The notes below the pieces were generated by a model. It made no database searches. It saw only the letters and a list, made by a program, of their open reading frames with translations, and had not been told where the DNA came from. From assembly GCA_019313695.1 (NCBI GenBank), contig JAFDAS010000004.1, forward strand, positions 1 through 60,685: a stretch of DNA of 60,685 nucleotides, read 5' to 3'. Positions 4,545-22,139 of this stretch are shown one piece after another. The first letter of the stretch is position 1; every line of letters begins with the position of its first letter. The stretch comes from Deltaproteobacteria bacterium. GTDB taxonomy: Bacteria; Desulfobacterota; Syntrophia; Syntrophales; UBA2210. The translations under genes were made by a program, and so were the position numbers.

Positions 4545-5306
4545 ATGAAGGTCATATATCACGAAGATTTTAAAGAGTCTTATTGTTCCGATCCCGCCGC
4601 AGCCGATGGACGGATCGAAGCCGTTATCAAAGCCATAGAAGGCAGGGTTGAATTTATTGACGCGATTCCCGCCGATGAAGGGGACATTCTTGCCTGCCAT
4701 ACGGACAATCATGTGGCGCATGTGAGAAAACAGGGGCTTTACGATATAGCTGCCCTTGCGGCCGGGGGCGCCATCCAGGCAGCCTTCAACGGTCTTGTCG
4801 AACCCTGCTTCGCCCTTATAAGACCCCCCGGACATCACGCGTCCGCGAACAATTCATGGGGCTTTTGTTTCTTTAACAATATGGCCATTGCCATATCAAA
4901 ACTGAAGAGAGAAGGCAGGATAAATACGGCATTTATCCTGGATTTTGACCTTCATTTCGGTGATGGCAACGTTAACATACTTGGAAATTCCGACTATGTA
5001 ACCATATACAATCCAACCGAATCCGATCCGAACAAATATCTCAGACATGTAGAGGAGATACTTCCTGACGATGCGGACATCATCGGCATCTCAGCAGGTT
5101 TTGATAATCACAGAGAAGACTGGGGCGGCGTCCTCTCCACAGATAATTACCGGGAGATGGGTCGGATGGTCCGCAGCGCGAGCCGGAAAAGCGGCGGAGG
5201 ATGCTTCGCCATACTGGAGGGAGGTTACAACCACAGAGTGCTGGGGCAGAATGTCATGGCCCTGATAGAGGGGCTGGAAGAGTTGGGGAAGACCGGGGAT
5301 GGATAA
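4545..5306 (+). CDS. histone deacetylase-family amidohydrolase (short, acetylpolyamine/AcuC-like)
   Basis: RPPGHHA...GFCFFNN...LDFDLHFGDGN motifs of the arginase/deacetylase superfamily. AAGGAGGA RBS precedes ATG 4545. Confidence 0.8.
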   Translation: MKVIYHEDFKESYCSDPAAADGRIEAVIKAIEGRVEFIDAIPADEGDILACHTDNHVAHVRKQGLYDIAALAAGGAIQAAFNGLVEPCFALIRPPGHHASANNSWGFCFFNNMAIAISKLKREGRINTAFILDFDLHFGDGNVNILGNSDYVTIYNPTESDPNKYLRHVEEILPDDADIIGISAGFDNHREDWGGVLSTDNYREMGRMVRSASRKSGGGCFAILEGGYNHRVLGQNVMALIEGLEELGKTGDG

Positions 5307-5419
5307 AGAAGGAAGGCGCTAAAAAGTATGGCGCAAAATATGGAGATCAGGTGTTGTGTCTGGGCTGTGTTGAACTTTTATCAATGGACCTGCCCAGTTT
5401 TAATTCCTCTTGGGGTTAA

Positions 5420-5443
5420 TTCCCCGCCGCCTGCGGCGGGGAA
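5420..5443. repeat. GC-rich REP-like hairpin (CCCCGCCGC/GCGGCGGGG)
   Basis: TTCCCCGCCGC-CT-GCGGCGGGGAA. Related hairpins lie at 16226-16245 and 31569-31588. Confidence 0.6.
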
Positions 5444-5543
5444 GTTCATTTGTATCGTATAAGAATTATTGTCTTGCATTATAGATGACCAGGGCATAGA
5501 TGATTAACTGTAACTTGCTTTTGTTGATAAAGGAGGTGCGCAT

Positions 5544-6905
5544 ATGAGAAAGCTTGAGATATCCGAGGGTGACATAAACATTTCTCCCGGAAGGAATAAA
5601 TGGCAGGAGGAGAATCTTAGCAAAGAGACACGTGCCGTCCTTGATGAAGACTCGCGATATTTCCTGAGTCAAGCGCTCTCCACTCCCTGTCTGAACGTAA
5701 TGTCCCGGTGCGAAGGGGCATATATTGAAGACATGCAGGGCCGGCGGTATATGGATTTTCACGGGAACAATGTCCATCAGGTGGGCTTTGCCAATCCTGA
5801 TGTTATAGAGGCGGTTAAACGACAGCTTGACGACCTCTCATTCTGCACCCGGCGCTACACCAACAGCGTGGCCGTTGAGCTGGCGGGAAAACTCTGCGAA
5901 ATCGCGCCGGGGGATTTGAATAAGGTGCTCTTGTGCCCCGGAGGGACCGAGGCAATAGGAATTGCCATAAAGCTCGCCCGAATGGCAACAGGCCGCCACA
6001 AGACGATTTCAATGTGGGATTCCTTTCACGGCGCGTCACTCGACGCGATATCCATAGGGGGAGAGGCGATATTTCGCAGGGACATTGGTCCCCTTATGTC
6101 CGGGACGGAGCATGCTCCCCCACCCGATGAATATCACTGTGCCTTCGGTTACCCGAATTGCGATGGCTGTGATTTTGTCTGCGCGCGGTACATCGAGTAT
6201 ATACTTGAAAAAGAGGGAGATATCTCCGCTGTTATAGCCGAGCCGATAAGGAGCACCCCTTACATTCCCAGACCTGAATACTGGAGAATAATAAGAGAAG
6301 CCTGTGACCGTCATGGCGCACTGCTTATATTCGATGAAATCCCTCACGCGCTGGGTCGTACAGGAAAGATGTTTACATTCGAGAATTTCGATATTGTACC
6401 TGACATGGTTGTGATAGGCAAGGGACTGGGAGGGGGAATATTTCCACTTGCCGCGCTGATCGTCCGGGAGAATCTGGACGTTGCCGCGGAACGGGCTCTG
6501 GGACACTATACCCATGAAAAAAGTCCCGTCGGATGCGCGGCGGCGCTGGCAACTATCGATTATATAGAGCGTCACAATCTTGCAGCCCGCGCCTCTGAAC
6601 TGGGCAGATACGCCCTCGATCGGATGGGGGGAATGATGGAACGGCACCCCCTGATAGGGGATGTCAGGGGGATAGGTCTGTTCCTCGGAATAGAACTGGT
6701 GAAGGACAGGGCGACGCGTGAAAGGGCTGTCGAAGAGGCGGAAGAGGTGATGTACAGGGCTCTGACTAAGGGACTGAGCTTCAAGTTGACTATGGGAAAT
6801 ATAATTACCCTCACACCGGCCCTGATAATCACCAGGGAAGAGATGGACAGGGCGCTTGATATCATCGACGAATGCCTGAACGAGGTGGAGGAGAATAAGC
6901 GGTAA
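5544..6905 (+). CDS. class III (omega-type) PLP aminotransferase family protein, paralogue 1
   Basis: 453 aa with a class III fold-type I pattern (MDFHGNNVHQVGFANP, FDEIPHALGRTGKMF). Paralogue of 28199..29569. AAGGAGG RBS. Confidence 0.85.
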   Translation: MRKLEISEGDINISPGRNKWQEENLSKETRAVLDEDSRYFLSQALSTPCLNVMSRCEGAYIEDMQGRRYMDFHGNNVHQVGFANPDVIEAVKRQLDDLSFCTRRYTNSVAVELAGKLCEIAPGDLNKVLLCPGGTEAIGIAIKLARMATGRHKTISMWDSFHGASLDAISIGGEAIFRRDIGPLMSGTEHAPPPDEYHCAFGYPNCDGCDFVCARYIEYILEKEGDISAVIAEPIRSTPYIPRPEYWRIIREACDRHGALLIFDEIPHALGRTGKMFTFENFDIVPDMVVIGKGLGGGIFPLAALIVRENLDVAAERALGHYTHEKSPVGCAAALATIDYIERHNLAARASELGRYALDRMGGMMERHPLIGDVRGIGLFLGIELVKDRATRERAVEEAEEVMYRALTKGLSFKLTMGNIITLTPALIITREEMDRALDIIDECLNEVEENKR

Positions 6906-6914
6906 AAAAGGCGA

Positions 6915-6940
6915 GGCCGGAAGAATAGCTGCTTCCGGCC
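6915..6940. terminator. bidirectional terminator hairpin between convergent genes
   Basis: GGCCGGAAG-aatagctg-CTTCCGGCC, flanked by A-runs on both sides. Confidence 0.6.
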
Positions 6941-7027
6941 CCACGGGCTAAAAAGGAGGTTTGGAGGGTTCCCGGTAATGTGTCGTAATTGACCGCTGAG
7001 GTTGCCTGGCAGACCTCACAGTTGTGA

Positions 7028-8140
7028 TCATAAAAGAGTGTCAACGGGTACGTACTCAAGCCCGAAGGCGTCGGCAACCCCCATGCAGGTCACCTTGCCC
7101 TTTACCACATTGGCGCCATGTTTGATTTCCCGGTTTTCCCTGAAAGCCCTTTTCCAACCCTTTGTTGCGATTTCCACGGCGTAAGGCAGGGTGGCATTGG
7201 TAAGAGCCAGTGTCGATGTCTTCGGTACGGCGCCGGGCATATTGGCAACACAGTAATGAAGCACTCCGTCCACGGTGAAGACAGGATCAGTGTGTGTGGT
7301 GGCCTTTGATGTTTCGAAACACCCGCCCTGATCGATGGCAACATCGACCATAACGGAGCCCTTTTTCATGGTTTTTAACATGTCTCGGGTTACAAGTTTC
7401 GGCGCCTTGGCTCCAGGGATGAGGACAGCCCCTATCACCAGGTCCGCTTCCCTTATGAGGTTGCGAATCGTAACCGGTTTTGACATGAGCAGAAAACAGT
7501 TCTTCGGCATTACATCACTCAGATAGCGGAGACGGTACAGGTCGTTATCAAGCAGATACACCTTGGCGCCCAGGCCGCATGCCATCTTTGCGGCATTGGT
7601 CCCTACGATTCCACCTCCGATGATGAGTACGGTGCCGGGGTCAACTCCCGGAACTCCGCCCAGAAGAACTCCCGCTCCTCCCCGGGACATTTCCAGATAA
7701 CGGGCTCCCTCCTGAATAGACATACGCCCTGCCACTTCACTCATCGGATTAAGGAGGGGCAATGATCGATCCTCCATCTGTATGGTTTCGTAGGCTATAT
7801 TTACAGATCCGCTCTGGACGAGGTGCCTGGTCAGTTTTTCATTTGCGGCAAGGTGGAGGTATGTGAAGACAATCTGGTCTTTCCTGATAAATCCATATTC
7901 CGACGGCAGCGGTTCCTTGACATGCATTACCATTTCTGCTCGTTCGTAGATTTCCCGGGGGCCTCCCACTATCTCTGCCCCGGCATTCATGTAAACTTTG
8001 TCTGAGAGTCCGCTCTTTATGCCGGCCTTCTTTTCCACAAGAACGGTATGCCCGTTCTGGTTCATCACTTCGACCCCTCCGGGGGTCATGGATACCCTGT
8101 TCTCTTCGGCCTTGATTTCTTTAAGAATCCCTACAATCAT
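7028..8140 (-). CDS. ald: alanine dehydrogenase
   Basis: [23 protein letters not shown]... and the NAD-binding segment [24 protein letters not shown]. 370 aa, typical for Ald. Confidence 0.9.
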
Positions 8141-8291: not shown

Positions 8292-9341
8292 TTACCAGAA
8301 TACGGATTCTTCTATTGCCTTTAAGAGCCTCTTTATATCTTCAGGATAAATGTCGCCAATGTTTCCGATCCTGAACGTATCGAGCTTTGTCACTTTGCCC
8401 GGATAGATAACGAAACCCCTCGCTTTCAGTTTGTCATAGAAGTCCTTGAAATTATATTTTTCACTTTCAGGACTGTAGAAGGATGTAATAATCGGTGACT
8501 GGAACTCGTCGGGCAGAAGAGTTTTGAAACCAAGCCTTCTCATACCTTCGACCAGGATCCTCTGGCTGGAGCTGTATCGCTCGTGTCTCTTTTCAATTCC
8601 GCCTTCCTCTTCCAGTTCCAGCATCGCCTGGTAAAAGGCCCTTACAACGTGAGTGGGAGAGGTGTACCGCCACTTGCCTCCGTCCGCTTCCATCATCTGC
8701 CACTGATCATAGAGATCAAGGGAGAGCGAACGGGCGTAGCCCTTTATCTTCGTCATTTCCTTTTTCCTGGCGATGATAAAACCAAAGCCCGGAACTCCCT
8801 GGATACATTTGTTTGAGCTTCCAACGCAGTAGTCGATGTTCAGGTCGGAAATATCCATGGGGACTCCACCAAAACTACTTATGGTGTCGGAAAAGTATAC
8901 CCTCCCGTGCTTTTTGACTATCTCGCCTATCTTATCTATGGGATTGATCATGCCCGTAGTCGTTTCACAGTGTACAACGGCAACGTGAGTTATATCCCTG
9001 TCTTCCTTCAGGGTTGACTCAAGCTTTTCCAGGTCGGGCTTTGCCAGTTCCCCGCTGTTATGAACGACGGTGTTTATCTTGAGGGTTTTAGAGATCAGGG
9101 CGATCCTGTCTCCGTAGGCGCCGTTTGCGAGGACGAGAAGCTTACCCTCGGGAGGGATTATGGAACCGATAATCGATTCAACGGAAAAGGTGCCGCTACC
9201 CTGCATAAGAGTGATTGTGTATTCTTCAGTTTTCTTCGTGGCCAGCGCGAGGAGCTTTGCCCGCAAATCTTCCACCAGGGTCTTGTAATCATCGTCCCAG
9301 GTGCACCAGTCTCTCAGCATAACGGCCTTTATTGTATCCAT
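8292..9341 (-). CDS. phnW: 2-aminoethylphosphonate--pyruvate transaminase-like (PhnW-type class V aminotransferase, short N-terminus)
   Basis: [12 protein letters not shown] and [19 protein letters not shown] are signature stretches of PhnW. AGGAGG RBS lies directly upstream. An in-frame stop 14 codons upstream excludes a longer N-terminus. Confidence 0.75.
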
Positions 9342-9561: not shown

Positions 9562-10809
9562 TTATGAAAATCCATAGGCCCGCTGTTTACTCTCGGGTAT
9601 AAGCAAAACAGCTAAGATGCCCAGCGCCGCCAGAAAACTAAGCAGAAAAAAGACTGATGCATATGATCCGAAGGTGTCGATAAGAATACCTGTCAGAAAC
9701 ATGGCGCACATGCTCCCCAGATGTCCTCCTGCCTCAAGAAAGCCGGACGCGGTTCCTGTGAGATCTGGTGAAAGTATATCCAGTTCCAGCGCGAAGAAAA
9801 GAGTCCCTATGGTCTGGTCGAAGAAACCGACGCCTGCTATGAGCATGAGTACGATAATTAAGTGGTCGGAAAGGGCCAGAAGGGCGGTGAATATGAGGAT
9901 CATGAATAATCCCACCAGGATAACGGGCTTCCTTTTCCCCTTGAGGGTGATGTCCGACAGATAGCCACCCAGAGGTCGCGCTATTATGCCCATAAGAGGA
10001 TAGATGCCCGCGCAGAGACCGGCCGAAACGACACTGAGGCCGTGGAATTCGTAGAGATACAAGGGGAGCCATATGAGGTTGCAGTAAGTTATATAGCTCA
10101 GACAGGAAAATCCCAGGCAGGCCATTCTCGTGGGTCCATTTGAGATGACGGCAAAGAGCCTGTTTTTTCTTTGTAAAGATACACCGTCTGGTTCCTCGTC
10201 GGGGTTGTCCCGCCCGATAATTATGCCGGACTCGTCAGGATGATCAGTTGCAAGAAGCCGGAAAATAACAAGACCGGGAAGCATAATAAGGGGCGATATT
10301 ATGAATACGATTCTCCAGCCGAATCTGTGGCCAACATAACCTGAAAGCAGATAGGCAAGAACGGTGAAAACGGATGTACAGGTGCAGAATATTCCAAGGG
10401 CACGCCCTCTTTCGGAAGCTGGAAACCAGTTGTTGAGGAGCTTGATGCTCGGGCTGAAGCCACAACCCTGTCCGAGGCCGTTTACGCTCTGGAGGCCTAT
10501 GAGGAATCCAAGCCCTGTTCCGGCGCTGAAGAGTGCATTCGCCAGGGATGACAAAAAGCCCCCGGTGACGATAATCTTTCTGGGACCGAAAATGTCGCTC
10601 AGATATCCCGCGGGGAGTTGGGCTATGGTGTAGAAGGCAAAAAAAGCGGTGCTGATGAGACCGATCTGGGTGTGCGTAAGATGCAGATCCCTCATCATTA
10701 AGGGAATAACCGGTGCCAGGTTAAGTCTGTTAAGGTAATAGCATCCGTAAACGAGCCAGAGAACAGCCAGTACCTTGTAACGGGGATGATATTGGAGTTT
10801 TGAGAACAT
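9562..10809 (-). CDS. MFS transporter
   Basis: About 12 predicted TM segments with MFS-like loops (YLNRLNLAPV, GYLSDIFGPRK). Start is uncertain: ATG 10809 is preferred over TTG 10863. Confidence 0.75.
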   Translation of the reverse strand: MFSKLQYHPRYKVLAVLWLVYGCYYLNRLNLAPVIPLMMRDLHLTHTQIGLISTAFFAFYTIAQLPAGYLSDIFGPRKIIVTGGFLSSLANALFSAGTGLGFLIGLQSVNGLGQGCGFSPSIKLLNNWFPASERGRALGIFCTCTSVFTVLAYLLSGYVGHRFGWRIVFIISPLIMLPGLVIFRLLATDHPDESGIIIGRDNPDEEPDGVSLQRKNRLFAVISNGPTRMACLGFSCLSYITYCNLIWLPLYLYEFHGLSVVSAGLCAGIYPLMGIIARPLGGYLSDITLKGKRKPVILVGLFMILIFTALLALSDHLIIVLMLIAGVGFFDQTIGTLFFALELDILSPDLTGTASGFLEAGGHLGSMCAMFLTGILIDTFGSYASVFFLLSFLAALGILAVLLIPESKQRAYGFS

Positions 10810-10958
10810 GTATATTTCAGTACAAATAAAGCCCGGATATGTAAAGCCGAAAATCCAATTCAACCCATCTGCTGGCAGAGCCGGTTGATCCTCAATGATT
10901 CAGGTGGCAACGGGAACCGATCCCGGCATCTCACGAAGGACGGAACATTTCGGCATTT

Positions 10959-11615
10959 TTAGTTGTCTGAGTCTAACAGACGAAGCAATTCGCTGGAGGC
11001 GTCCAGGATTGTATCATATATTCCATGGGCTCCGGAAAAATCGCCATCCATTGTCAGTCTGTTTGGGACTACCATGCATCTGATCCCGGCCGCGATTGCA
11101 GCCCTGAGGCCGCGTTCCGAATCCTCCACGATGATGCAGCGCTCTTTTTTGAAACCGTTTTTCCTAATCGCAGTGAGAAAGGGATCGGGGTCCGGTTTGG
11201 AACGTTCGTAGTCCTCCCGGGTCAACACGAAATTAAAATATGGCAAGAGTCCCGTGGCGGCATGAATAATGTCAAAGTGTTCCCTCCGGGAACTCGTTAC
11301 CACGCCCATGGACACCCTGCCCTGTAACATGCGGAGCGTATGCTCAACACCGTCTATCGGCCGAACACCGCTCCGCAGCAGGTTGCCATAGAGAAGATTG
11401 CGTTTCTGTTGGAGACGAGAAATCTTCTCCGCTGTTATGCCCCTTTCGGCGGCAAGGTCGAAGGAGCTGCGACCCTGCTTCAGGGAAATTGTCTTGAACA
11501 GTTCCTCGGTCAGTTCGACTCCCGTTTCGGAAAGAGCCTCTTTCGTTGATTCATAGTACAGTCTTTCCGTATCGACGAGGACACCGTCGTTGTCCCACAG
11601 GATCGCTTCCAGCAT
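10959..11615 (-). CDS. HAD-IA family hydrolase
   Basis: ILWDNDGVLVDTE (motif I) and VVEDSERGLRAAIAAG (motif IV). The PhnX-type DWAGT motif is absent. Confidence 0.8.
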   Translation of the reverse strand: MLEAILWDNDGVLVDTERLYYESTKEALSETGVELTEELFKTISLKQGRSSFDLAAERGITAEKISRLQQKRNLLYGNLLRSGVRPIDGVEHTLRMLQGRVSMGVVTSSRREHFDIIHAATGLLPYFNFVLTREDYERSKPDPDPFLTAIRKNGFKKERCIIVEDSERGLRAAIAAGIRCMVVPNRLTMDGDFSGAHGIYDTILDASSELLRLLDSDN

Positions 11616-11633: not shown

Positions 11634-13025
11634 TTAATCTCTGCCCCACTTGTTCAGATAACTGCCTAAAAGTTCCTCCTCAGTGGGAACATGATAGTTC
11701 TCAATTGGCTGAGCGAGATTAGTATAATTCAGAAAGTGCTTCCAGTTCACGTTAGTGCTGGAGATGTTGCCGGCCCATGTGCCACACCCGAGGGTATCGG
11801 TAAATGGATTACCGCTGAACCAGGCGCCGCTGTTTGCCGCCCCGTGAGGCATATTGCAACAGACTCTTCCCACGTTTGCCTTGATGGCGAGCTCCATCAT
11901 CCTGTCCTGACGGGTGGAATGAATCGCTATCGAATGTCCCTCACCTGAGAACTTGTGCATCTTTTTCGCCCGTTCCACCATCTCGCTGAAATCCGTCCAT
12001 TTCCATATGGTGAGAACGAGGGATATCTTTTCTCCGGAGAATCTGTCTTCAGAACCAATCTTTTCTCCCATAACCATAAGACACCGTGTACCATCCGGGA
12101 TATTAATATCAGACATCTTTGCAGGATACTCGACTGGTCTTGCCACACAGTCGCGGTTCAATACTGTTCCATCCGGCCACATCCATTTACGAAGTCTTTC
12201 GCGCTCTTCAGTGGCGCAGAGATAGCCGCCCTCTTCTTTGAGGCACTCCATCATCTCGTCAAAAACACTCTCTTGAATGGCAACAGCGTTTTCCGATGAA
12301 CAGGACGCTGCATTGTTGGCACATTTCGACATCATTATCTTGTTGGCGGCAGCCTTGAGATCGGCCGTGGAATCAATAATCGAAATGACATTGCCCGCGC
12401 CGACCGTTTGGGCCGGTTTGCCCGCCTCATAGACAACCTTGATCAGTGCCGCTCCGCCTGTGGCAACCGCATAGTCGCAACTTGCCATGAGTTTCTGCGT
12501 CTTCTCGTTGGTAGGATGCTTAATGCACTGCATCAGATCCTCCGGGGCGCCAATTTTTTTCAGGGCCTTCCTGCCGAGTTCGACAGTCTTGTATGAGCTC
12601 TGCGGTGTCCTGGGATGAGGAGACACGATCTGGGCGTTTCTCGTTTTCAGCATGCTGAGACCGAGGGCGCAGATTGTGGATTCGGGGTTCGTACAGGGCA
12701 CAACGTTCGCGATGACACCGATGGGTTTGGCCAGGATCTTGAGATTTTTTTCAGGTATATCTTCTATTACGCCGCAGGTCTTTACGCCTTTCTGGTCCCA
12801 GAGCGTGCCGAGACATTTGTCCTTTATCTTGTTTACCTTGTCCTCATAGCGGCCGATTCCGGATTCATCGACAGAAAGGCGCGCAAGGAGTTTCCTGTTC
12901 TCCTCCTTCTGCCATTCCCAGGCTGCCGCCTGGCACATCTCGTCGACCTTTTCCTGTGGCCAGAACTCTATGGTTTCAAAGGCCTTTCGTGCCCTTTCAT
13001 ACATCTCTTGAATGTTGTCTTCCAT
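11634..13025 (-). CDS. CoA-acylating aldehyde dehydrogenase (SucD/SauS/EutE-like)
   Basis: 463 aa. TVGAGNVISIID and NNAASCSSENA (catalytic Cys) resemble acylating ALDHs. The ELGGK general-base motif of non-acylating ALDHs was not seen. GGAGG RBS. Confidence 0.75.
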   Translation of the reverse strand: MEDNIQEMYERARKAFETIEFWPQEKVDEMCQAAAWEWQKEENRKLLARLSVDESGIGRYEDKVNKIKDKCLGTLWDQKGVKTCGVIEDIPEKNLKILAKPIGVIANVVPCTNPESTICALGLSMLKTRNAQIVSPHPRTPQSSYKTVELGRKALKKIGAPEDLMQCIKHPTNEKTQKLMASCDYAVATGGAALIKVVYEAGKPAQTVGAGNVISIIDSTADLKAAANKIMMSKCANNAASCSSENAVAIQESVFDEMMECLKEEGGYLCATEERERLRKWMWPDGTVLNRDCVARPVEYPAKMSDINIPDGTRCLMVMGEKIGSEDRFSGEKISLVLTIWKWTDFSEMVERAKKMHKFSGEGHSIAIHSTRQDRMMELAIKANVGRVCCNMPHGAANSGAWFSGNPFTDTLGCGTWAGNISSTNVNWKHFLNYTNLAQPIENYHVPTEEELLGSYLNKWGRD

Positions 13026-14187: not shown

Positions 14188-15071
14188 TTTTTCCACTCTC
14201 CTTCCTCTTTCTGTTTTTTCGCGTATTCCTGTCTCTCTGCCTGGCTTGGAACCTCTCTGTCCTCGGGACCAACGTATTTTATCATGGAGAGATCCAGCAT
14301 CTGTACCATAGGTTCACTTTTCGACGCGGCCCAGGCGCGGCCTTTCTTCACCTGGTAGAGGGCATGAGCAGCGCAGCTGTATCCCCTGGTGACGCATCCG
14401 ATACACCAGGCGGCATTGGGTGCAAATCCTATCTCGGCAAGGGCGGTATTTCCCGCTCCGATCATATTGACGGATACATAGGATTTACCCTCTTTTTTCC
14501 TCCGCTCATTGAAATGCTTCTCTATCGACCTTTGAAGTTCCAGGTAGACGCCGTTTATACCCAGCTGTTCGTGCTTGATATGCGTCGGCTCCGCCCTGGG
14601 GTCTCCGTCGAGATGCTGGGGCTGTCCCATGCCCATGACAGCGAGACCGGCATCCATGTGCTCATCAACGAGGATCTTGCCCATCTCTTCCAGGGATATG
14701 CCCTCAACGCGGGCACGTTCGATGTACTTATGCATCATATATCCGTGAGCAGCTCCCGGTCCATGGGCGCCACCGAAGGTCATAACAGCGGCCGCGGCAG
14801 CGGCCGGAATGTTGGGTCTTCCACTGATTACCCCGAAAGCTGATGCCGCCGAGGGTGACATGGAATGTTCCAGAAATTCTCCCATTTCATACTCGAGCAT
14901 CTTTTCCTCTTCCTCGGTTGGAAGCCTCTGTTGGAACAGGACAAACATGGCGTCACAAAAGGTATATCCGGCCTCCGCCAGATCGCTTACATTGTAGCCA
15001 CGTAAGACGGTCTTTTCTTCTGTCTTGTAGGAAATCGATGTCTTCCTGCGGAAGAACGGTTCTCTGCTCAT
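14175..15071 (-). CDS. citrate synthase / citryl-CoA lyase-fold protein, less degenerate subunit
   Basis: VLRGYNVSDLAEAG, EHSMSPSAAS, TFGGAHGPGA and GMGQPQHLDGDPRA match citrate-synthase-family blocks. GGAGG RBS. It overlaps the downstream partner by 13 nt. Confidence 0.7.
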   Translation of the reverse strand: MSREPFFRRKTSISYKTEEKTVLRGYNVSDLAEAGYTFCDAMFVLFQQRLPTEEEEKMLEYEMGEFLEHSMSPSAASAFGVISGRPNIPAAAAAAVMTFGGAHGPGAAHGYMMHKYIERARVEGISLEEMGKILVDEHMDAGLAVMGMGQPQHLDGDPRAEPTHIKHEQLGINGVYLELQRSIEKHFNERRKKEGKSYVSVNMIGAGNTALAEIGFAPNAAWCIGCVTRGYSCAAHALYQVKKGRAWAASKSEPMVQMLDLSMIKYVGPEDREVPSQAERQEYAKKQKEEGEWKKWAL

Positions 15072-15304: not shown

Positions 15305-16174
15305 TCAACTTATCCCTATGAAAATTACTCCCAGTGCGATGATAAAAGATCCCGTCAATTTCTGCATGGCATGTTTCTCTTTGAACCAGACAAGGCCGTA
15401 AATTGTCGACAGCACAATACTAAGTTCACGGACGGCAACAACATAACTCACATTGCTCATACGAAACGCAAAGAGAATCATCATGTACGTCAGGAGCACA
15501 AGAACTCCCACGGCAAGTATATTGTTTCGATTGCAACGCCACTCCTTTCTCAGTTCCTCTCTTTTCTTTATCAGCACATAGGGCGACAAAGACGTCACGA
15601 CAATCAACAACATGAAATATATGTACAAAGGCGGCTCCACAAAACCCACGCCTACCTTATCGACAAGTGAATAGGCTGCAATCGTAAGGCCTGTCATGAT
15701 CGACCAGGATGACGCACCATGCTTCACTGCGCGAAAAGGTTCCACGAAAGAATCGAATGCAAAGGATCTCAGGTGAATCACATATATCCCAGACACAACC
15801 AACGCGATGCCAAGAGCCCCCATCGGATAAATTTTTTCGTGCAGAAACAATACTGCCATCACCGGCACCAAAAGCGGTCCCGAACCCCTGGAAATGGGAT
15901 AGACCAGCGAGAGGTCGCCACGCTCGTATGCGCCGCACATAAAGATGTAATAAAGAACATGGAGCAGTCCCGTTGCCGCAATACACAACCATCCTTCCAT
16001 TGGTATGTCAGCGCGAAACCAATAGTAAAAAAACATCGGAGAATAAAAGACCAGCGACACTACCAAAAACGCCCAGCTGTAGGTGAGCTTATCGAGGCTT
16101 TTTTTCAGAAAATAATTCCACCCGGAATGTAAAAAAGCCGCCACTATCACTATCACAAGAGCAATATCACTCAC
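15305..16174 (-). CDS. EamA/DMT-family transporter
   Basis: 289 aa with ~10 TM segments and a two-EamA-repeat architecture. Confidence 0.75.
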   Translation of the reverse strand: MSDIALVIVIVAAFLHSGWNYFLKKSLDKLTYSWAFLVVSLVFYSPMFFYYWFRADIPMEGWLCIAATGLLHVLYYIFMCGAYERGDLSLVYPISRGSGPLLVPVMAVLFLHEKIYPMGALGIALVVSGIYVIHLRSFAFDSFVEPFRAVKHGASSWSIMTGLTIAAYSLVDKVGVGFVEPPLYIYFMLLIVVTSLSPYVLIKKREELRKEWRCNRNNILAVGVLVLLTYMMILFAFRMSNVSYVVAVRELSIVLSTIYGLVWFKEKHAMQKLTGSFIIALGVIFIGIS

Positions 16175-16471: not shown

Positions 16472-17566
16472 TCACATAATGACGGCAACACGTACCGCTT
16501 CGCCCGATTCCGCGATTCTAAGGCCTTTGTTGATATCGTCCAGGCTTATCCTGTGCGTGACAATTTCCCTGAAGGGGAAATCCTTCTGTCTCATCTCCAG
16601 GAGGTCAAGTCCCGCCTTCAGGTGTCTGGCGTCATAATTGTGAATTCCCCTGATGGTGAGTCTTCTGAATATGATGTCGCAGGCATCATAGGTGAAGTCG
16701 GCTCCGGGGAAAGCGCAACCCACTTCGACAAACCGCCCTCCGATACGGAGGCACTTCAATCCAAGAGGAATAAGACCAGGCACACCCGCCACTTCCATGG
16801 CGCAATCGACTCCGTGATCGTCCGTAAGACTTTTGATCGCATCGACGATTTCGTCGTCTTTCATATTCCGTACGTTTATGGTATCAGTTGCGCCGAACCG
16901 TTTTATAAAATCCAATCGATGATCCAATATATCGGTAACGATAATTTTTCTGCACCCGTAATGCGATGCCAGCGCAGAGGCATAAAATCCGAGCGCGCCT
17001 GCCCCCTGAATCAACACGTTTTCAAAGGGTTTGACTTCGGCCGCCTCCCACGCGGCAATGACCGTTCCCAGCGCGCAATTCGCTGGTGCGACTTCCTCAT
17101 CAGTGAGCGAATCCGGCACTTTAAACACACATGTCCCCGGTGTAATGTAGCAGTACTCGGCAAAGCCTCCCTTAAAATGGGGAGGGGTTTCACAACTGTC
17201 GTGACCGTACTTTTTCAGATTTTGGCATTTCATGGGCAGGCCTTTATCACGGCAGTAGTAACATTTTCCGCAGTTGTCCATGATGGTCCAGGTAACCCTG
17301 TCGCCCACTCGCAGGGATCTGTCAGCGCTGTCATGCGTCACCCCCCTGCCAAGTTCCACAATCTTTCCGACAATTTCATGGCCGAGAATAATTGGGACAG
17401 GCGCGGGTCTGTGGCCCAGCCATGAATGAACATCCGAGCCGCAGATAGTGCAGCAGGTTATCTTAACAAGGATACATCCCTTTTCTACCTCAGGTAAGGG
17501 ATATTCTATGAATTCAAGGTCCTTTTTCTGGGCCGTCATCACGGCGGCTCTTCCCATCTTGGTCAT
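16472..17566 (-). CDS. zinc-dependent medium-chain alcohol dehydrogenase
   Basis: CGSDVHSWLGH...GHEIVG (catalytic Zn), CGKCYYCRDKGLPMKC (structural Zn) and GAGALG (NAD). It resembles the clade described as phosphonate-catabolism-associated ADH; this was not verified. Confidence 0.85.
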   Translation of the reverse strand: MTKMGRAAVMTAQKKDLEFIEYPLPEVEKGCILVKITCCTICGSDVHSWLGHRPAPVPIILGHEIVGKIVELGRGVTHDSADRSLRVGDRVTWTIMDNCGKCYYCRDKGLPMKCQNLKKYGHDSCETPPHFKGGFAEYCYITPGTCVFKVPDSLTDEEVAPANCALGTVIAAWEAAEVKPFENVLIQGAGALGFYASALASHYGCRKIIVTDILDHRLDFIKRFGATDTINVRNMKDDEIVDAIKSLTDDHGVDCAMEVAGVPGLIPLGLKCLRIGGRFVEVGCAFPGADFTYDACDIIFRRLTIRGIHNYDARHLKAGLDLLEMRQKDFPFREIVTHRISLDDINKGLRIAESGEAVRVAVIM

Positions 17567-17709: not shown

Positions 17710-19026
17710 TCAACCGAACAGAAGACCGGGAAGCCAGAGCACAATCTGCGGGAAGAAATAAATCATAGCAACGCCCACTACTTGCAGAGCCATGAACGGC
17801 ATCATTCCTTTATAGATATCCAGCAGTTCCCACTCAGGCATGATTCCCTTGATATAGTAAGCCGATAAAGCCACCGGTGGGGAGAGCCAGCATGTCTGCA
17901 GCACGACGGCCAGCAGCATGCAAAACCATATCATATTTATATTCATCTCCCAGATAATCGGAAGGAAGATAGGGACAATGACGACCACGATAGGGACCCA
18001 CTCCAGGGGCCAGCCCAGGATAAAACAGACTATCAGGATACCGACCAGAAAAACCCAGGGGGGGAGGTTCCAGGAAAGCAGGGTATGGGCGATGAAGAGC
18101 GGCGTTCCCATCGAGGAAAAAACCACTCCCATGAATGTGGAAGCCGCAAGAAGAATCATCACCATGCTCGTCGTTTCGGCCGTGCGGAAGACGGCTTCCT
18201 TCACGAGCTTGAAGGTCAGTTTCCCGTTCAGAGCTGTCACTATCAAGGCCCCAAAGCATCCGAGGGCTGCTCCTTCCGTGGGTGTGGCAAGTCCCGTTAT
18301 AATGGAGCCCAGCGTTGCCAGAACGAGGACTGACGGCGGCAGGAGTCCCAGAAAAAACTCACGAATCTTGAAACTTGTGGGTACGTCGAGTTCCTCATCG
18401 GACATAGGCGGACCCAGCTCCGGGTTGATCATGACCCGGATCATCGTGTAAATGACGTACATGCTGGCGAGCATGATCCCTGGCAGAATCGCTGCGGCAA
18501 AGAGCCGTGCAACAGAAACCTGCATCACCGGCCCCATGACCACCAGCATAATGCTGGGAGGTATCAGGATACCCAGCGTTCCGCCGGCGCAGATAGCTCC
18601 GGCGCTGAGCGCCGAGTCGTAATTGGACTTTTTCATGACAGGAGCGGCCATCAGTCCGATGATCGTGACGGCGGCGCCCACAATCCCCGTTGCCGCCGCG
18701 AACAGCGTCGCCGAGAAGATAGTCCCCATATACAATGAACCCTTGAGCCGACCGGAAAGGAGAAGAAGCGCCCTGAAGAGACGTTCCATCAGGCCGGCCT
18801 TCTCAAGGATATAGCCCATGAACGTAAAAAGGGCCACTGCCGCCAGAACCGTATCCAGCATCGTGTCGAAGAACGTAAGGGTCATAAGGTAGAATACCTT
18901 GGTGCCAAGACCGATAAAACCGAATATCATGCCGAGTGTGATCAGCGTGAATGAAATAGGAAACCCTATGCATATAGCTCCGAAGAGGCCCCCCAGAAGT
19001 ATCAAACCATATATTTCCAAGCTCAT
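17710..19026 (-). CDS. TRAP transporter large permease (DctM family)
   Basis: 438 aa and highly hydrophobic, with a DctM-type pattern. Adjacent to the DctQ and DctP homologues. Confidence 0.9.
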   Translation of the reverse strand: MSLEIYGLILLGGLFGAICIGFPISFTLITLGMIFGFIGLGTKVFYLMTLTFFDTMLDTVLAAVALFTFMGYILEKAGLMERLFRALLLLSGRLKGSLYMGTIFSATLFAAATGIVGAAVTIIGLMAAPVMKKSNYDSALSAGAICAGGTLGILIPPSIMLVVMGPVMQVSVARLFAAAILPGIMLASMYVIYTMIRVMINPELGPPMSDEELDVPTSFKIREFFLGLLPPSVLVLATLGSIITGLATPTEGAALGCFGALIVTALNGKLTFKLVKEAVFRTAETTSMVMILLAASTFMGVVFSSMGTPLFIAHTLLSWNLPPWVFLVGILIVCFILGWPLEWVPIVVVIVPIFLPIIWEMNINMIWFCMLLAVVLQTCWLSPPVALSAYYIKGIMPEWELLDIYKGMMPFMALQVVGVAMIYFFPQIVLWLPGLLFG

Positions 19027-19126
19027 TTCTTCCTCCTAGATAGTTTTGAGACATTCAAGAAATTCCGCGGTCCCCTGGATCAACAGCAGCGTCAATGACA
19101 ATACCGCAACAGGGGAAATAACGGAT

Positions 19127-19669
19127 TTACGTAATCTCAGAGGGTTCCTCTTCCCGGTGGCGAATATCCACTCCTGTCAGTAAGAACTTTATCGATTTGA
19201 GAAGTTCCGAGATTCCCTGGAGGAGCAGCAAGACCCCGCCTAAGGGAATGGCCGATTTGTACCAGTATGCCGGGGGCCTCCAGGTCGTCATCAGTTTTTC
19301 CCTCAAGTCCCAGGATTCGGCAGCGTAGCCCCAGCTCAGCCAGATGAACATCACTATCCCGGGAAGAAAGAGGAGGAGATAGCAATACACGTCAACCCAG
19401 CATTGCGTCCGTGGTTTCCAACCCTGGTAAAGAAAGTCGGTCCGAATATGCTTTCCCATATAGAGGGTCATGGCGCCGGCAAGCCAATAATGAGTGCCGT
19501 AGCACATGGTAGATATATCGATAGCCCAGAGCGTTGGGCGGTAGGTGTAGCGAATAAAGACTTCCCAAACCAGCGTGGCCGCCATCGGGATGATCAGCCA
19601 GGCAACGGTTTTCCCTGCCCATATACTGATCTGGTCGATCACCTTGATGATCCGATCTATGTTGTTCAT
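19127..19669 (-). CDS. TRAP transporter small permease (DctQ family)
   Basis: About 180 aa with 4 TM segments. ATG 19669 has GGAG 10 nt upstream. The ORF-track start at 19684 is TTG. Confidence 0.8.
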   Translation of the reverse strand: MNNIDRIIKVIDQISIWAGKTVAWLIIPMAATLVWEVFIRYTYRPTLWAIDISTMCYGTHYWLAGAMTLYMGKHIRTDFLYQGWKPRTQCWVDVYCYLLLFLPGIVMFIWLSWGYAAESWDLREKLMTTWRPPAYWYKSAIPLGGVLLLLQGISELLKSIKFLLTGVDIRHREEEPSEIT

Positions 19670-19877
19670 AGTATCACACTCCAAAATTTCGGGATGGTTC
19701 GCTCGGAATCATCCTTTTTGGTTGAAATGGTCGTTTTCCCAACTTTCTCTCGACATCTTCGCCCGCAACGGCTTACCCGGCCGACCCTTCCCGACAGGAT
19801 TCGGGAGGGCCGGCCCAGGCAAGGCGTTGATGACGATCGGGCCCGTCATGCGACGCGCCCATTGGTTCTGCATGCGT

Positions 19878-20996
19878 CTATTTCGTTTCCGCAGCCCCGG
19901 AGATCAACAGCATCAGCTTGTTGGTCTCTGTGGTGAAGGGAACCACTAACTTGGCATACGCGCGCTGTGACTCGATAACCTTTTTGAAGAACGGATCCTT
20001 CTTCTCGATTTCGGCCATCACCTTCTTCGACGATTTAATGAAGGCCTCTGAATAGCCGGCGGGCGCGTCGAACACATTGACGCCCTTTTCCTCGACCAGT
20101 ATCTTAAGGGCCTTGGCGTTTTGTTCCACAAAGTACATCATGCCCTCAAGAATCGACTGTGTGGTTGCGCATTCAATGATCTTCTGGATATCCGGGGGCA
20201 GTGCACGCCATGCATCGCCGTTGATGATGATATCCATGATGCCGACCGCCTGGTGGAGCCCCTGGAGGGAGTAGTTCTTGGCAACGTCGTAGAGCCCCAG
20301 CTTCAGGTCGCTGGCCGTATTGATCCACTCGCCGCCGTCGAGCAGGCCCCTCTCCAGCGCGGGGATAACCTCCGCTCCACTCATGTTCACCGGGATGCCG
20401 CCCATGTCCTTCAGAACGTCCGACGACAGACCCGAAGACATGCGGTACCTCATTTTCAGGTAATCCTCGAGCGTCTTGGGCTGCTTCTTACTCCACCCGA
20501 AGGCCTCAGGTCCGTCCGGCGCGATCAGGAAGGGCATGACGTCCGCCTTGACGATCTTCTGGTAATATTCCACGTAGAGATCCCGTCCTCCCCCCTGGAA
20601 ATACCAGGAAAGATGGTTCATTAGATCCAGACCGCTTCCGGCGCCGCCGAGCGGGGAGCTGAAGAGACTGCCGGCCGGGTTTTTCCCCATCGAGTAATGG
20701 GTCCACCATTGTCCGCACTCAATGATCCCCTTCTTGACGCCGTCCATAATTTGAAAAGGTTTCACGATGGCGCCGCTCGCGAGGACCTCGATATGAAGCC
20801 TCCCTGCCGACATCGTCTCGATGTTGTCGGCCAATCTTTTCAACAGCACAATTTGAGGGGCCCCTGCGGGGTTCGCGCTCTGCAGCTTCCAATTAAACTG
20901 TGCCGCATGCGCAGTCGCTGTAAGACCGGAAATACTCAAGGTCAAAGCGCAAGCAATAACCACCGCTAACGAAACAATCAAAAGTTTTCTTTTCAT
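19878..20996 (-). CDS. TRAP transporter solute-binding protein (DctP-like, COG4663-type)
   Basis: Signal peptide, then FNWKLQSANPAGAPQIVLLKRLADNIETMSAGRLHIEV, typical of the DctP superfamily. Confidence 0.85.
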   Translation of the reverse strand: MKRKLLIVSLAVVIACALTLSISGLTATAHAAQFNWKLQSANPAGAPQIVLLKRLADNIETMSAGRLHIEVLASGAIVKPFQIMDGVKKGIIECGQWWTHYSMGKNPAGSLFSSPLGGAGSGLDLMNHLSWYFQGGGRDLYVEYYQKIVKADVMPFLIAPDGPEAFGWSKKQPKTLEDYLKMRYRMSSGLSSDVLKDMGGIPVNMSGAEVIPALERGLLDGGEWINTASDLKLGLYDVAKNYSLQGLHQAVGIMDIIINGDAWRALPPDIQKIIECATTQSILEGMMYFVEQNAKALKILVEEKGVNVFDAPAGYSEAFIKSSKKVMAEIEKKDPFFKKVIESQRAYAKLVVPFTTETNKLMLLISGAAETK

Positions 20997-21206
20997 GATC
21001 TTCCTCCTTATTACGTTATGTTAGCAATTCAGTGAATCTAAAAAATCCGGCTATATTCTACCCCTTGCTTCTCTTTGTGCCCTCCTTTCCCTTCGCATTT
21101 GATATGATTGTGGGGAAAATTCCTTACCCCCGGATATTGGTTTGGCAGGACAGCATGTCTTTCCAGGTATTTTTAACGATATTGCCGTCGCTCAATCCAA
21201 ATCATT

Positions 21207-22139
21207 TTATTGTTTCTTATTCTGAGACTTCACTTCCTCGTAGGCCCTGTTTAAAAGCCGTATTACGTCGTAGTCTGTGTCTTTCATGCTCACACACTTT
21301 TCGGCCTTGACATTGTCAAGCCACGCCTGACACGTGGGTTCTTCATGAACGGTAAGAAATGCCCGTCTGATTTTTTCTCTCAATTGAGGATGGAGGTCCA
21401 TTCTATAGGCAAAGGGGTCCTGGGGAATCGTTGCGGACCACCAGATGTAATTGAAATCTTCTTTTTTCACAACGCTGCGATCTATGACGTTGTCGAATCG
21501 ATGGGTGGCAACGAATGCGCAGTCTATCCTGCCATCGTAAACCGCCATGATGGAAAGATCATGCCCTCCGGAATAGACTACCCTCTTAAAATATTTTTCC
21601 AGGGGCATCCCGACTTCTTTTACGAAAACCACCCGGGGCACCAGATTTCCCGATGTGCTGTCAGGATCAGTCAGAACAACTGTCGCTCCCTTTATGGATT
21701 CAACCGTTGTATATTTGCTGCCTTTTTTTGTTATGATTACCGATTGGTATCCCGGGCCGCTTTTGCTGATATATCCCTGTTTCTTCTTGTAGGTGGCGAA
21801 TACCACGATGTCAGGGTCTTTTTCGTGGGCTATCACGTATGAAAAGGGTCCGTGAACGGCGACATCCACCCACCCATTAACCTGCGCTTCCACGACGCTG
21901 GAATAGGAGGCGGGCATATAGAAATTTATTTTTTTCCCTGTGCATTTAGAAAGATAGTCTATAAGAGGTTTATAGATGGTAAGTTCCTGGATGGTTTCCT
22001 CTGTGGGGATGATGGAAAATGTGAGGATATCAGGGTCCTTCCACCCGTCATCCGCAGAAATGCATCTTACCCCTGAGAGGATAAGGCATGTCGATACAAA
22101 GAAAACGATAATTAATCTTGAGATTATTATTTTCTTCAT
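21207..22139 (-). CDS. PhnD-like phosphate/phosphite/phosphonate-type periplasmic binding protein (orphan; no adjacent permease or ATPase)
   Basis: Signal peptide. LTFSIIPTEETIQELTIYKPLIDYLSK...VDVAVHGPFSYV matches the PhnD/PF12974 pattern. Confidence 0.75.
   Translation of the reverse strand: MKKIIISRLIIVFFVSTCLILSGVRCISADDGWKDPDILTFSIIPTEETIQELTIYKPLIDYLSKCTGKKINFYMPASYSSVVEAQVNGWVDVAVHGPFSYVIAHEKDPDIVVFATYKKKQGYISKSGPGYQSVIITKKGSKYTTVESIKGATVVLTDPDSTSGNLVPRVVFVKEVGMPLEKYFKRVVYSGGHDLSIMAVYDGRIDCAFVATHRFDNVIDRSVVKKEDFNYIWWSATIPQDPFAYRMDLHPQLREKIRRAFLTVHEEPTCQAWLDNVKAEKCVSMKDTDYDVIRLLNRAYEEVKSQNKKQ

Follow-up and report, generated by a model that had tools for sequence, protein, structure and literature searches.

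A conserved pair of citrate-synthase-fold proteins and an acylating aldehyde dehydrogenase as a candidate phosphonoacetaldehyde-processing module in a Syntrophales-type bacterium

How does a bacterium apparently equipped to turn several C2 phosphonates into phosphonoacetaldehyde (PnAA) dispose of this compound, if none of the usual PnAA-consuming enzymes is recognized beside the feeder genes? The question is raised by contig JAFDAS010000004.1 (assembly GCA_019313695.1) of a Deltaproteobacteria bacterium placed by GTDB in Syntrophales UBA2210; the whole stretch analysed, 60,685 nucleotides (nt) long, is called the window here. The carbon–phosphorus (C–P) bond of natural phosphonates is cleaved by three hydrolytic routes, an oxidative one, and a radical one. 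To our knowledge, every hydrolytic route was elucidated in bacteria held in culture, mostly aerobic ones. At the center of the locus in the window stand three neighboring genes encoding two citrate-synthase-fold proteins, CCL_A and CCL_B, and a coenzyme A (CoA)-acylating aldehyde dehydrogenase (aALDH). This module is probably a new branch of PnAA processing. For the chemistry of the branch, we propose tentatively, rating the chance somewhat below even, that PnAA would be converted via phosphonoacetyl-CoA to acetyl-CoA and phosphate, with the C–P bond cleaved by the CCL pair. Genes in the window were called from a list of open reading frames (ORFs) and from Pfam and NCBIfam profile scans, and gene absences in the window were judged on the ORFs scanned with these profiles. 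CCL_A is carried by 238 genomes (one genome per species), of which the best 80 were examined as loci (numbered with the prefix L); counts of neighboring genes refer to these 80 unless a smaller denominator, the loci with enough sequence, is stated. The enzymes concerned are the following:

5544–6905, + strand: PbfA, class-III pyridoxal phosphate (PLP) fold (NF049939, 712.6 bits; cut-off 525)
7028–8140, − strand: alanine dehydrogenase (TIGR00518, 496.9 bits; cut-off 391.85)
8292–9341, − strand: PhnW, 2-aminoethylphosphonate (AEP):pyruvate transaminase (TIGR02326, 541.1 bits; cut-off 400.8)
10959–11615, − strand: HAD1, a β-phosphoglucomutase-like DxDxV phosphatase of the haloacid dehalogenase (HAD) type (family matches; motif I DNDGV)
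11634–13025, − strand: aALDH, CoA-acylating aldehyde dehydrogenase (best match SauS NF047625, 465.6 bits)
13165–14196, − strand: CCL_B, citrate-synthase-fold subunit B, 343 amino acids (aa), paralogue of CCL_A
14175–15071, − strand: CCL_A, citrate-synthase-fold subunit A, 298 aa (Pfam Citrate_synt)
16472–17566, − strand: zinc-dependent alcohol dehydrogenase (Zn-ADH), PbfG-like (TIGR03366, 309.5 bits; cut-off 328.1)
28199–30992, + strand: PbfA2 (NF049939, 656.6 bits; cut-off 525) and a saccharopine-dehydrogenase-like protein (Sacchrp_dh)
36051–36752, + strand: HAD2, a non-canonical HAD protein (motif I DFGQT, without the second Asp)
36773–37861, + strand: divergent PhnA-family hydrolase of the alkaline-phosphatase/nucleotide pyrophosphatase–phosphodiesterase (NPP) superfamily (TIGR02335, 201.2 bits; cut-off 407.55)

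A preliminary description of this DNA, made from the sequence alone, had presented positions 4545–22139 as a C2-aminophosphonate-type catabolic cluster that lacks all three canonical C–P cleavage systems and has an apparently non-canonical downstream chemistry. The observation itself is confirmed, and its interpretation is partly supported. All 15 genes were found by ORFs and Pfam/NCBIfam matches at the positions and in the order it gave, and the assignment to C2-phosphonate catabolism is borne out by PhnW, two PbfA copies, a PbfG/TIGR03366-like alcohol dehydrogenase, a PhnD-like protein, and a phn_DUF6-like permease. The PhnW signature blocks that it quoted are present in the translation, and the protein falls inside the PhnW family, both by the score listed above and by a match to PRK13479 (527 bits; cut-off 296). 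The profile match begins at position 17, about 16 N-terminal residues of the family being missing; the ORF starts behind a strong AAGGAGG ribosome-binding site, stop codons lie upstream in all frames, and the protein may be naturally short or may have lost its N-terminus. PhnW-family genes were seen in 25 of the 80 loci. A second PhnW-like subfamily, with 77–86% identity among its members and 32% to the PhnW of the window, lies between CCL_B and aALDH in L001 (12045–13178) and in nine other loci. The alanine dehydrogenase, shared by no loci but the closest two (L005 and L006), would turn alanine back into pyruvate and free NH3.

The gene at 5544–6905, previously taken for a class III aminotransferase, is by its NF049939 score a PbfA, predicted to act as a lyase and not as a transaminase, namely as the ammonia-lyase of (R)-hydroxy-AEP ((R)-HAEP). 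Both PbfA copies (5544–6905 and 28199–29569) span positions 1–441 of the 442 of the profile, and a PbfA gene is found in 15 of the 80 loci. The pair of PbfA2 and the saccharopine-dehydrogenase-like protein recurs in L020, L024, and L032; by analogy with the NAD-dependent racemase PbfF, it could handle another HAEP-related compound or the other enantiomer. The Zn-ADH scores 19 bits under the TIGR03366 cut-off, has threonine dehydrogenase as its next best match, and contains PF00107 and PF08240. PbfG was described as a PF00107 dehydrogenase of 2-hydroxyethylphosphonate (HEP), which it converts to phosphonoacetaldehyde (PMC13576164). By this published description, with which its gene context also agrees, the Zn-ADH is likened to PbfG and proposed to convert HEP to PnAA; a role as PbfF, the HAEP racemase, was rejected, as PbfF belongs to PF02826 and not to PF00107. 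The Zn-ADH gene was found in 20–24 of the 80 loci, and in Planctomycetota it is the sole feeder gene adjoining the core. The AEP-like substrates proposed in the preliminary description stand as far as aminophosphonates are concerned, but the substrate range would be wider, because the Zn-ADH points to HEP.

Thus PhnW acting on AEP, PbfA on (R)-HAEP, and the PbfG-like enzyme on HEP would all converge on PnAA. None of PhnX, PhnY, PhnZ, C–P lyase, Xsc, or a glycyl-radical enzyme was detected among the ORFs scanned; the C–P lyase genes phnGHIJKLM were not found in the NCBIfam/Pfam scans, and no ORF of the window matches the families of Xsc (a thiamine pyrophosphate enzyme) or IslA/IslB (a glycyl-radical enzyme and its activase). 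Hence, the reported absence of C–P lyase, PhnY, Xsc, and IslA stands for the ORFs scanned. The absence of all canonical C–P systems holds inside 4545–22139, but the PhnA-family hydrolase at 36773–37861 lies elsewhere in the window. The candidates left to consume PnAA are aALDH, the two citrate-synthase-fold proteins, the HAD proteins, and the distant PhnA-like protein, and since no other PnAA consumer was found among the ORFs scanned, PnAA would be handled by the core module. Further genes that may feed this pathway were seen in Anaerolineales and Planctomycetota metagenome-assembled genomes (MAGs), where homologues of the MtmB-family methyltransferase (PF05369) adjoin PbfA/PhnW and the CCL core: two copies each in L031 (7877–10697), L051 (7154–9958), and L067 (6400–9191) and one in L061 (8582–9955). 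They may serve an anaerobic, corrinoid-dependent demethylation of N-methyl-AEP; under aerobic conditions, this demethylation is the job of the FAD enzymes PbfC and PbfD.

The comparison of neighborhoods bears out the non-canonical downstream chemistry by revealing a conserved CCL_A/CCL_B/acylating-ALDH module. There are hundreds of CCL_A homologues at 75–96% identity, and across the loci of the best 80 of the 238 genomes CCL_A is 73–96% identical. The clade is isolated: a library of 1.84 billion representatives gave only 25 matches at E ≤ 1e-30, mostly fragments, identity does not exceed 45% for the next relatives and is 25–33% for generic citryl-CoA lyases. The best 80 loci all come from MAGs, which belong to about ten bacterial phyla and two archaeal groups, among them Syntrophales, Desulfobacterales, Anaerolineales and other Chloroflexota, Planctomycetota, Opitutales and other Verrucomicrobiota, Spirochaetota, Bacteroidota, Gammaproteobacteria, and Alphaproteobacteria; the sources were anoxic sediments, bioreactors, and marine samples. 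Closest to the window are the Syntrophaceae MAGs L005 and L006, with an identical gene order in L006. There is no cultured isolate among these 80 genomes (L005–L084), which may explain how the module escaped biochemical study.

CCL_B adjoins CCL_A in 80 of 80 loci. In 55 of the 61 loci with at least 3 kb of sequence after CCL_B, aALDH follows directly, at a median gap of 120 nt, and larger gaps of 1–2.3 kb are mostly filled by a PhnW-like transaminase. A HAD2-type gene comes directly after aALDH in 36 of the 52 loci with at least 1.5 kb of room and is absent from 13. None of the catabolic loci contains phosphoenolpyruvate (PEP) mutase. The operon of Planctomycetota and Verrucomicrobiota reads regulator–(MFS)–CCL_A–CCL_B–aALDH–(HAD2)–(PbfG-like ADH)–(MFS), where MFS denotes a major facilitator superfamily transporter. 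Published pbfG clusters have the same architecture, with phnX or phnY–phnA as the consumer of PnAA (PMC13576164). Because the operon architecture matches these clusters, the trio holds the place of phnX or phnYA; the core is a conserved unit standing where the PnAA-consuming enzymes normally stand. The assembly of genes is not due to chance, since the same core order recurs in 80 loci of other genomes.

The aALDH is full length (SauS profile positions 3–462 of 464) and remains under the SauS cut-off (465.6 bits; cut-off 600). Its best PDB match, aligned over residues 3–454, is the acylating succinate-semialdehyde dehydrogenase SucD (8cei), and AdhE/EutE-type models match as well. The score to the non-acylating PhnY model TIGR03250 is 26.8 bits (cut-off 635.65), and no other aldehyde dehydrogenase (ALDH) was found among the ORFs scanned. 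In SucD, the distal carboxylate is bound by Lys70 and Ser243, which are replaced by Leu and Val in the propionaldehyde enzymes (PMC10249356). All 55 aALDH members have the equivalents of SucD Lys66, Lys70, Cys242, and Ser243; Cys242 is the catalytic residue, and the CoA-protonating His364 is kept in 54 of 55. Across phyla, the protein is 60–73% identical and tightly syntenic with the CCL pair. Its nearest relatives, SauS and SucD, are acylating ALDHs that act on anionic aldehydes. Taken with the invariant anion-binding equivalents, this argues that the substrate would be PnAA, yielding phosphonoacetyl-CoA, and not acetaldehyde.

CCL_A scores under every NCBIfam citryl-CoA lyase cut-off. Its nearest PDB entry is the citryl-CoA lyase 6hxp, with which, as with citrate synthases, both CCL_A and CCL_B can be aligned; the two are paralogues with 32% identity. 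Their ORFs overlap by 22 nt in the window; of 67 pairs, 43 have a 13-nt overlap between the end of CCL_A and the start of CCL_B. In citrate synthase (numbering of the pig enzyme is used throughout), His274 stabilizes the acetyl-CoA enolate, Arg329 of the DPR motif binds oxaloacetate, His320 polarizes oxaloacetate, and Asp375 is the catalytic base. CCL_A keeps the equivalents of His274 (H103) and Arg329 (R159, in a DPR motif) and has Gln150 in place of His320 and Ile204 in place of Asp375. In CCL_B, the catalytic residues His274, His320, and Asp375, as well as Arg329, are all replaced. Of the 298 CCL_A residues, 128 are invariant in 78 sequences, including six His, one Cys, and D155, D157, and E161 of the former oxaloacetate-binding loop, and in CCL_B 87 of 343 residues are invariant. 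Because the His320 and Asp375 equivalents are lost, the pair appears not to be a Claisen enzyme. The retained enolate-stabilizing residue and the new His/Asp/Glu-rich site would fit a hydrolytic C–P cleavage with the acetyl-CoA enolate as leaving group. For comparison, PhnA and phosphonopyruvate hydrolase make use of a metal-polarized carbonyl β to phosphorus. A Claisen role of the FrbC type, joining acetyl-CoA and phosphonopyruvate, was set aside, as the catalytic base is missing, no enzymes of C3/C4 phosphonates stand alongside, and PEP mutase does not occur in any catabolic locus. A Horner–Wadsworth–Emmons-like reaction (phosphonoacetyl-CoA and an aldehyde giving an enoyl-CoA and phosphate) is neither supported nor excluded.

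A link between the CCL pair and phosphonates that is independent of the catabolic context is suggested by fusion proteins. An N-terminal cytidylyltransferase domain is fused to CCL_A in only four protein clusters out of 5.8 billion (L003, 10001–13597; L073, 9569–13154; L085, 10001–11284; L086, 8259–12004), and since only four exist, this biosynthetic variant is beyond statistics. Downstream of the fusion gene come CCL_B, a 193-aa HD hydrolase, and a nucleotidyltransferase. The settings are archaeal and marine biosynthetic clusters for surface glycans, lipids, or phosphonates, with genes for a CDP-alcohol phosphatidyltransferase, B12-radical-SAM, asparagine-synthase-like, and sugar-nucleotide proteins nearby; no acylating ALDH was found in the fusion loci. 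One of the four contexts contains a PEP mutase–nucleotidyltransferase fusion, without a recognizable phosphonopyruvate decarboxylase, and in two of the four no PEP mutase was seen within 10 kb. The fused domain is TagD/RfaE-like. In 74 of 80 metagenome loci, its closest relatives (56–68% identity) form an in-frame fusion with PEP mutase, an architecture known from Fom1, the cytidylyltransferase–PEP mutase fusion of fosfomycin-type clusters. Unlike in Fom1, CCL_A takes the place of PEP mutase here, and of the four fusion contexts just one has a PEP mutase nearby. The 80 metagenome loci are L088–L167 (e.g., L088, 10001–11293); in none of them, found by a scan with the cytidylyltransferase domain, was CCL_A present.

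Besides the core, two kinds of hydrolases have to be considered. HAD1 occurs in 13 loci, all of Desulfobacterota, and since it is confined to this group it is considered accessory; its score to the PhnX model TIGR01422 is 25.6 bits (cut-off 220). In HAD2, motif I reads FDFGQT in 26 of 30 members, and the second Asp, the general acid, is absent. No TIGR01422 match was listed for HAD2, it has no meaningful score to phosphonatase models, and no invariant Schiff-base Lys of the cap domain is evident in its members. PhnX likewise has a motif I, DWAGT, without the Asp two positions on, its leaving group needing no protonation. The statement in the preliminary description that neither HAD has a PhnX-type DWAGT motif is right for HAD2, but it overlooks that DFGQT lacks the second Asp as PhnX does. 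HAD2 could be a C–P hydrolase or remove a phosphorylated by-product. The PhnA-family protein aligns over its full length (residues 4–339) with the PhnA structures 1EI6 (E = 4.5e-50) and 3SZY (E = 4.1e-48). It keeps the Thr nucleophile and the metal-ligand motifs, with VCLDG for CxDG, TVTNVNN for TNxNN, TTDYATH for TTDYxxH, TADHGMNAK, and RSHGS for RSHG; since other NPP enzymes share these motifs, they leave the substrate unproven. In related MAGs, the gene shares an operon with the CCL core, and it occurs in 13 of the 46 loci with at least 4 kb after aALDH (28%). In eight Desulfobacterota loci, including L001, it follows HAD2, with 53–65% identity where measured. The protein could clear free phosphonoacetate.

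In the route that we propose, the locus would be a catabolic island, induced by its substrates, of an anaerobic bacterium of the Syntrophales type. PnAA would be supplied from AEP by PhnW, with alanine dehydrogenase recycling the amino acceptor, from (R)-HAEP by the two PbfA proteins, and from HEP by the PbfG-like enzyme. The aALDH would then oxidize PnAA with NAD(P)+ and CoA to phosphonoacetyl-CoA, and the translationally coupled heterodimer CCL_A/CCL_B would hydrolyze the C–P bond of this thioester to give acetyl-CoA and phosphate, the acetyl-CoA enolate being the leaving group and the His/Asp/Glu-rich loop at the former oxaloacetate site handling the phosphoryl group. HAD2, the PhnA-family hydrolase, and HAD1 would be accessory and may treat free phosphonoacetate or a phosphorylated by-product, a PiT transporter would dispose of the released phosphate, and the product acetyl-CoA would allow ATP synthesis. 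C–P cleavage is placed in the core with moderate confidence, because the HAD2 and PhnA-family genes are absent from many loci. We infer from sequence comparison that aALDH acts on PnAA, that the pair acts on the product of aALDH, and that the pair rather than a HAD protein breaks the C–P bond.

Several points weigh against this route. The core steps rest on such comparison, and in the literature searched phosphonoacetyl-CoA is not known as a catabolic intermediate. An acid/base of the Asp375 type, normally needed to protonate the enolate to acetyl-CoA, is missing. A PhnA-family hydrolase, in the window (with intact catalytic motifs) and in 28% of the loci, would be redundant if the pair cleaves the C–P bond. 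In L013, L035, L057, and L068 the pair stands without an ALDH within 4.5–9 kb downstream. The pairs of the biosynthetic clusters are 78–82% identical to the others and have the same invariant residues, but they come with the HD hydrolase and nucleotidyltransferases and without an ALDH, and a C–P hydrolase has no obvious role in archaeal phosphonate or surface-glycan biosynthetic clusters. An AlphaFold2 model of CCL_A, built from a 15-sequence alignment, had a mean predicted local distance difference test score of 49.7, too poor for inspection of the CoA site.

If the fusions are considered, a purely hydrolytic role misfits, and a release of phosphonoacetate followed by its cytidylylation fits better. 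This is accommodated by a reading that we consider unlikely, in which aALDH forms phosphonoacetyl-CoA, the pair removes or transfers CoA to give phosphonoacetate, and the PhnA-family hydrolase cleaves the latter, aALDH and the pair together replacing PhnY. Citrate synthases do hydrolyze an acyl-CoA thioester, the PhnA-family enzyme of the window has all its catalytic motifs and follows HAD2 in the Desulfobacterota loci mentioned, and among these readings it is the only one that also suits the biosynthetic fusions, where phosphonoacetate could be set free and cytidylylated by the fused domain. However, the PhnA-family gene is missing from 33 of the 46 loci with room for it, the residues citrate synthase uses for hydrolysis (His320 and Asp375) are lost, such a detour is wasteful beside the one-step PhnY, and a thioesterase would hardly require 128 invariant residues and an obligatory heterodimer. 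We give a distinctly smaller chance to HAD2 being the true C–P hydrolase, a new phosphonatase acting on PnAA or phosphonoacetyl-CoA, with the pair, for example, making or rearranging its substrate. The PhnX-like lack of the second Asp and the position after aALDH in most loci speak for it, as does the HD phosphohydrolase that follows the pair in the biosynthetic variant, making the pair with a phosphohydrolase a recurrent combination; the loci with room and no HAD2, the silence of the phosphonatase models, the missing Schiff-base Lys, and a conservation of only about 50%, versus 73–96% for CCL_A, speak against it.

A different order of steps, in which the pair, with or without a HAD protein, splits PnAA into acetaldehyde and phosphate and aALDH is an ordinary acetaldehyde dehydrogenase making acetyl-CoA, has the same net stoichiometry. 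Acylating acetaldehyde dehydrogenases are common in anaerobes and, as noted, AdhE/EutE-type models match aALDH. Yet we regard it as highly improbable: all 55 members keep the equivalents of SucD Lys70 and Ser243, for which aliphatic-aldehyde enzymes carry Leu and Val, the best families are SauS and SucD and not EutE, the enzyme is conserved across phyla and in tight synteny with the pair, and no activity of the citrate-synthase fold is known that does without an acyl-CoA. A long shot, rated lower still, is that the pair transfers phosphoryl or nucleotidyl groups to and from the acetyl-CoA enolate carbon, running downhill in the catabolic operons (phosphonoacetyl-CoA to acetyl-CoA and phosphate) and synthetically in the fusions, where the enolate would attack the α-phosphate of CTP and make a C–P bond independently of PEP mutase. 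Least credible of all is a sulfonate cluster for taurine or sulfoacetaldehyde, the main alternative of the preliminary description, for which no support was obtained. SauS is the best NCBIfam match of aALDH, and anaerobic taurine users, too, typically combine an alanine dehydrogenase with a pyruvate-dependent transaminase, but PhnW and both PbfA copies exceed curated equivalog cut-offs, the core is surrounded by PhnD-like, PhnA-like, phn_DUF6-like, PhnS2T2U2-like, and PiT genes, neither a sulfite exporter nor a sulfite reductase was found, like Xsc and IslA/B, among the ORFs scanned, and CCL_A is elsewhere fused to a PepM-type cytidylyltransferase domain.

Compared with known systems, the proposed CoA-dependent route shares with the PhnW–PhnY–PhnA pathway (AEP to PnAA, phosphonoacetate, and then acetate and phosphate) the feeders PhnW and PbfA, the oxidation of PnAA to the acid level before C–P cleavage, a PhnA-family hydrolase in the window and in part of the related loci, and compatibility with anaerobic life. 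Unlike that pathway, it lacks PhnY, oxidation would be carried out by a SauS/SucD-type aALDH, there are two obligatory citrate-synthase-fold partners, and the PhnA-like protein, scoring far below its family cut-off, is dispensable in most loci. With the PhnW–PhnX pathway it has in common PnAA as a hub, a module HAD without the second motif-I Asp, and equivalent net products once acetaldehyde is oxidized to acetyl-CoA; it differs in that neither HAD of the window scores as PhnX, the Schiff-base Lys is not evident, and the HAD gene is missing in a quarter of the loci. The conversion proposed for aALDH, between an anionic aldehyde and the corresponding CoA thioester, has counterparts among acylating enzymes in the SauT–SauS–Xsc system of Cupriavidus necator (sulfoacetaldehyde/sulfoacetyl-CoA) and in clostridial SucD (succinate semialdehyde/succinyl-CoA), and phosphonoacetyl-CoA is the phosphonate analogue of sulfoacetyl-CoA. 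Unlike in the former system, aALDH stays below the SauS cut-off, neither the SauT ligase nor Xsc is present, the proposed direction is oxidative, and the partner is a citrate-synthase-fold heterodimer. The pair itself resembles citryl-CoA lyase, the C-terminal module of ATP-citrate lyase, and citrate synthase in fold and sequence family, CCL_A keeping the enolate His and the DPR Arg. It is unlike them in its lost catalytic residues, in being a heterodimer of two paralogues with a new invariant His/Asp/Glu loop, and in its context, which is phosphonate genes and never the reductive tricarboxylic acid cycle.

A CoA-dependent or citrate-synthase-like step in phosphonate catabolism is undescribed in the searchable full text, outside which most subscription journals lie, and a prior description of the route cannot be fully excluded. 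In the searchable literature, phosphonoacetyl-CoA appears only as an unrealized expectation in one biosynthesis preprint, and two surveys of phosphonate degradation clusters from 2023 are silent on a CoA-dependent or citrate-synthase-like route. If the CoA-dependent route is correct, then it would explain how anaerobes use AEP, HAEP, and HEP as sources of carbon, nitrogen, and energy while keeping the thioester for ATP synthesis. CCL_A would also be a marker of phosphonate turnover missed by surveys of phnX, phnA, phnZ, and phnJ, and the citrate-synthase fold would gain a new chemistry.

The core is embedded in genes for transport and sensing:

4545–5306, + strand: histone deacetylase (HDAC)-like amidohydrolase, 253 aa (Pfam Hist_deacetyl, two partial stretches)
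9562–10863, − strand: MFS transporter of the organophosphate:phosphate antiporter type, GlpT/PgtP/UhpC-like (family matches)
15305–16174, − strand: EamA/DMT permease, phn_DUF6-like (TIGR03340, 143 bits, under the cut-off of 288)
17710–20996, − strand: tripartite ATP-independent periplasmic (TRAP) transporter, DctM, DctQ, and a divergent DctP (family matches)
21207–22139, − strand: PhnD-like binding protein (TIGR01098, 230 bits; cut-off 112)
21207–25585, − strand: unit of the PhnD-like gene, a 132-aa lipoprotein ORF, a LuxR-type response regulator, and a HAMP/PAS histidine kinase
31712–35564, + strand: ATP-binding cassette (ABC) importer, PhnS2/U2/T2-like (TIGR03261, TIGR03262, and TIGR03265 best, all under cut-offs)
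37863–38756, − strand: LysR regulator, phn_lysR-like (TIGR03339, 188 bits, under the cut-off of 341)
38957–41841, + strand: PhoU_div, PiT (PHO4) phosphate transporter, PhoU_div (family matches)

Seventeen ORFs separated by short gaps run on the − strand from 25585 down to 7028, among them, in this order, the histidine kinase, response regulator, lipoprotein ORF, PhnD-like protein, DctP, DctQ, DctM, Zn-ADH, EamA, CCL_A, CCL_B, aALDH, HAD1, MFS, PhnW, and alanine dehydrogenase; the HDAC-like and class-III PLP genes lie on the + strand, convergent with alanine dehydrogenase. The genes of the cluster do lie at 4545–22139, but the unit runs on to 25585, and a second phosphonate block, outside the positions previously described, occupies 28199–41841. 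No homologue of the HDAC-like gene, which had been counted as a member, occurs in the 80 related loci; a connection of this gene with phosphonate metabolism is therefore unsupported and its membership doubtful, and it was rejected as part of the system. A class-V aminotransferase at 3083–4234 was rejected likewise, having no orthologue in the 80 loci.

Among the transporters, EamA permeases recur in 19, TRAP transporters in 13, and PhnD-like binding proteins in 11 of the 80 loci, and MFS genes of the organophosphate:phosphate antiporter type in 12. DctP is very divergent (54 bits to TRAP_S1), and no description of TRAP systems for phosphonates was found in the literature covered. The gene content indicates uptake by importers dependent on substrate-binding proteins, of the TRAP and ABC types. 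The PhnD-like protein reaches 226 bits to PhnD TIGR03431, under the cut-off of 261, and no ABC permease or ATPase adjoins its gene. All four genes of its unit are found together in L005, L006, and L007, and the response regulator and PhnD-like genes are adjacent also in L009, L012, and L015; 21207–25585 is probably a binding-protein-dependent phosphonate sensor and not a transporter. The phn_lysR-like LysR type recurs in 16 loci. Regulation would be exerted by LysR and by the two-component system with the PhnD-like protein and is not visibly of the Pho type, which is why substrate induction is suggested. The PiT family recurs in L019, L026, L028, and L068, and the PiT/PhoU_div unit is consistent with disposal of excess phosphate. 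In its gene content, the cluster resembles a pathway by which an anaerobe gains carbon, nitrogen, and energy rather than one for phosphorus scavenging.

The remainder of the window holds a corrinoid/siderophore-type ABC and TonB system and housekeeping genes. At 43529–49345, there are an aldehyde:ferredoxin-oxidoreductase-like gene and two iron-dependent alcohol dehydrogenases (Fe-ADHs) with weak scores to the phosphonate-associated Fe-ADH model TIGR03405. Members of this Fe-ADH family are also present in L031, L041, L054, L059, and L067, and the two enzymes could be PhpC-type HEP dehydrogenases or take part in general aldehyde handling.

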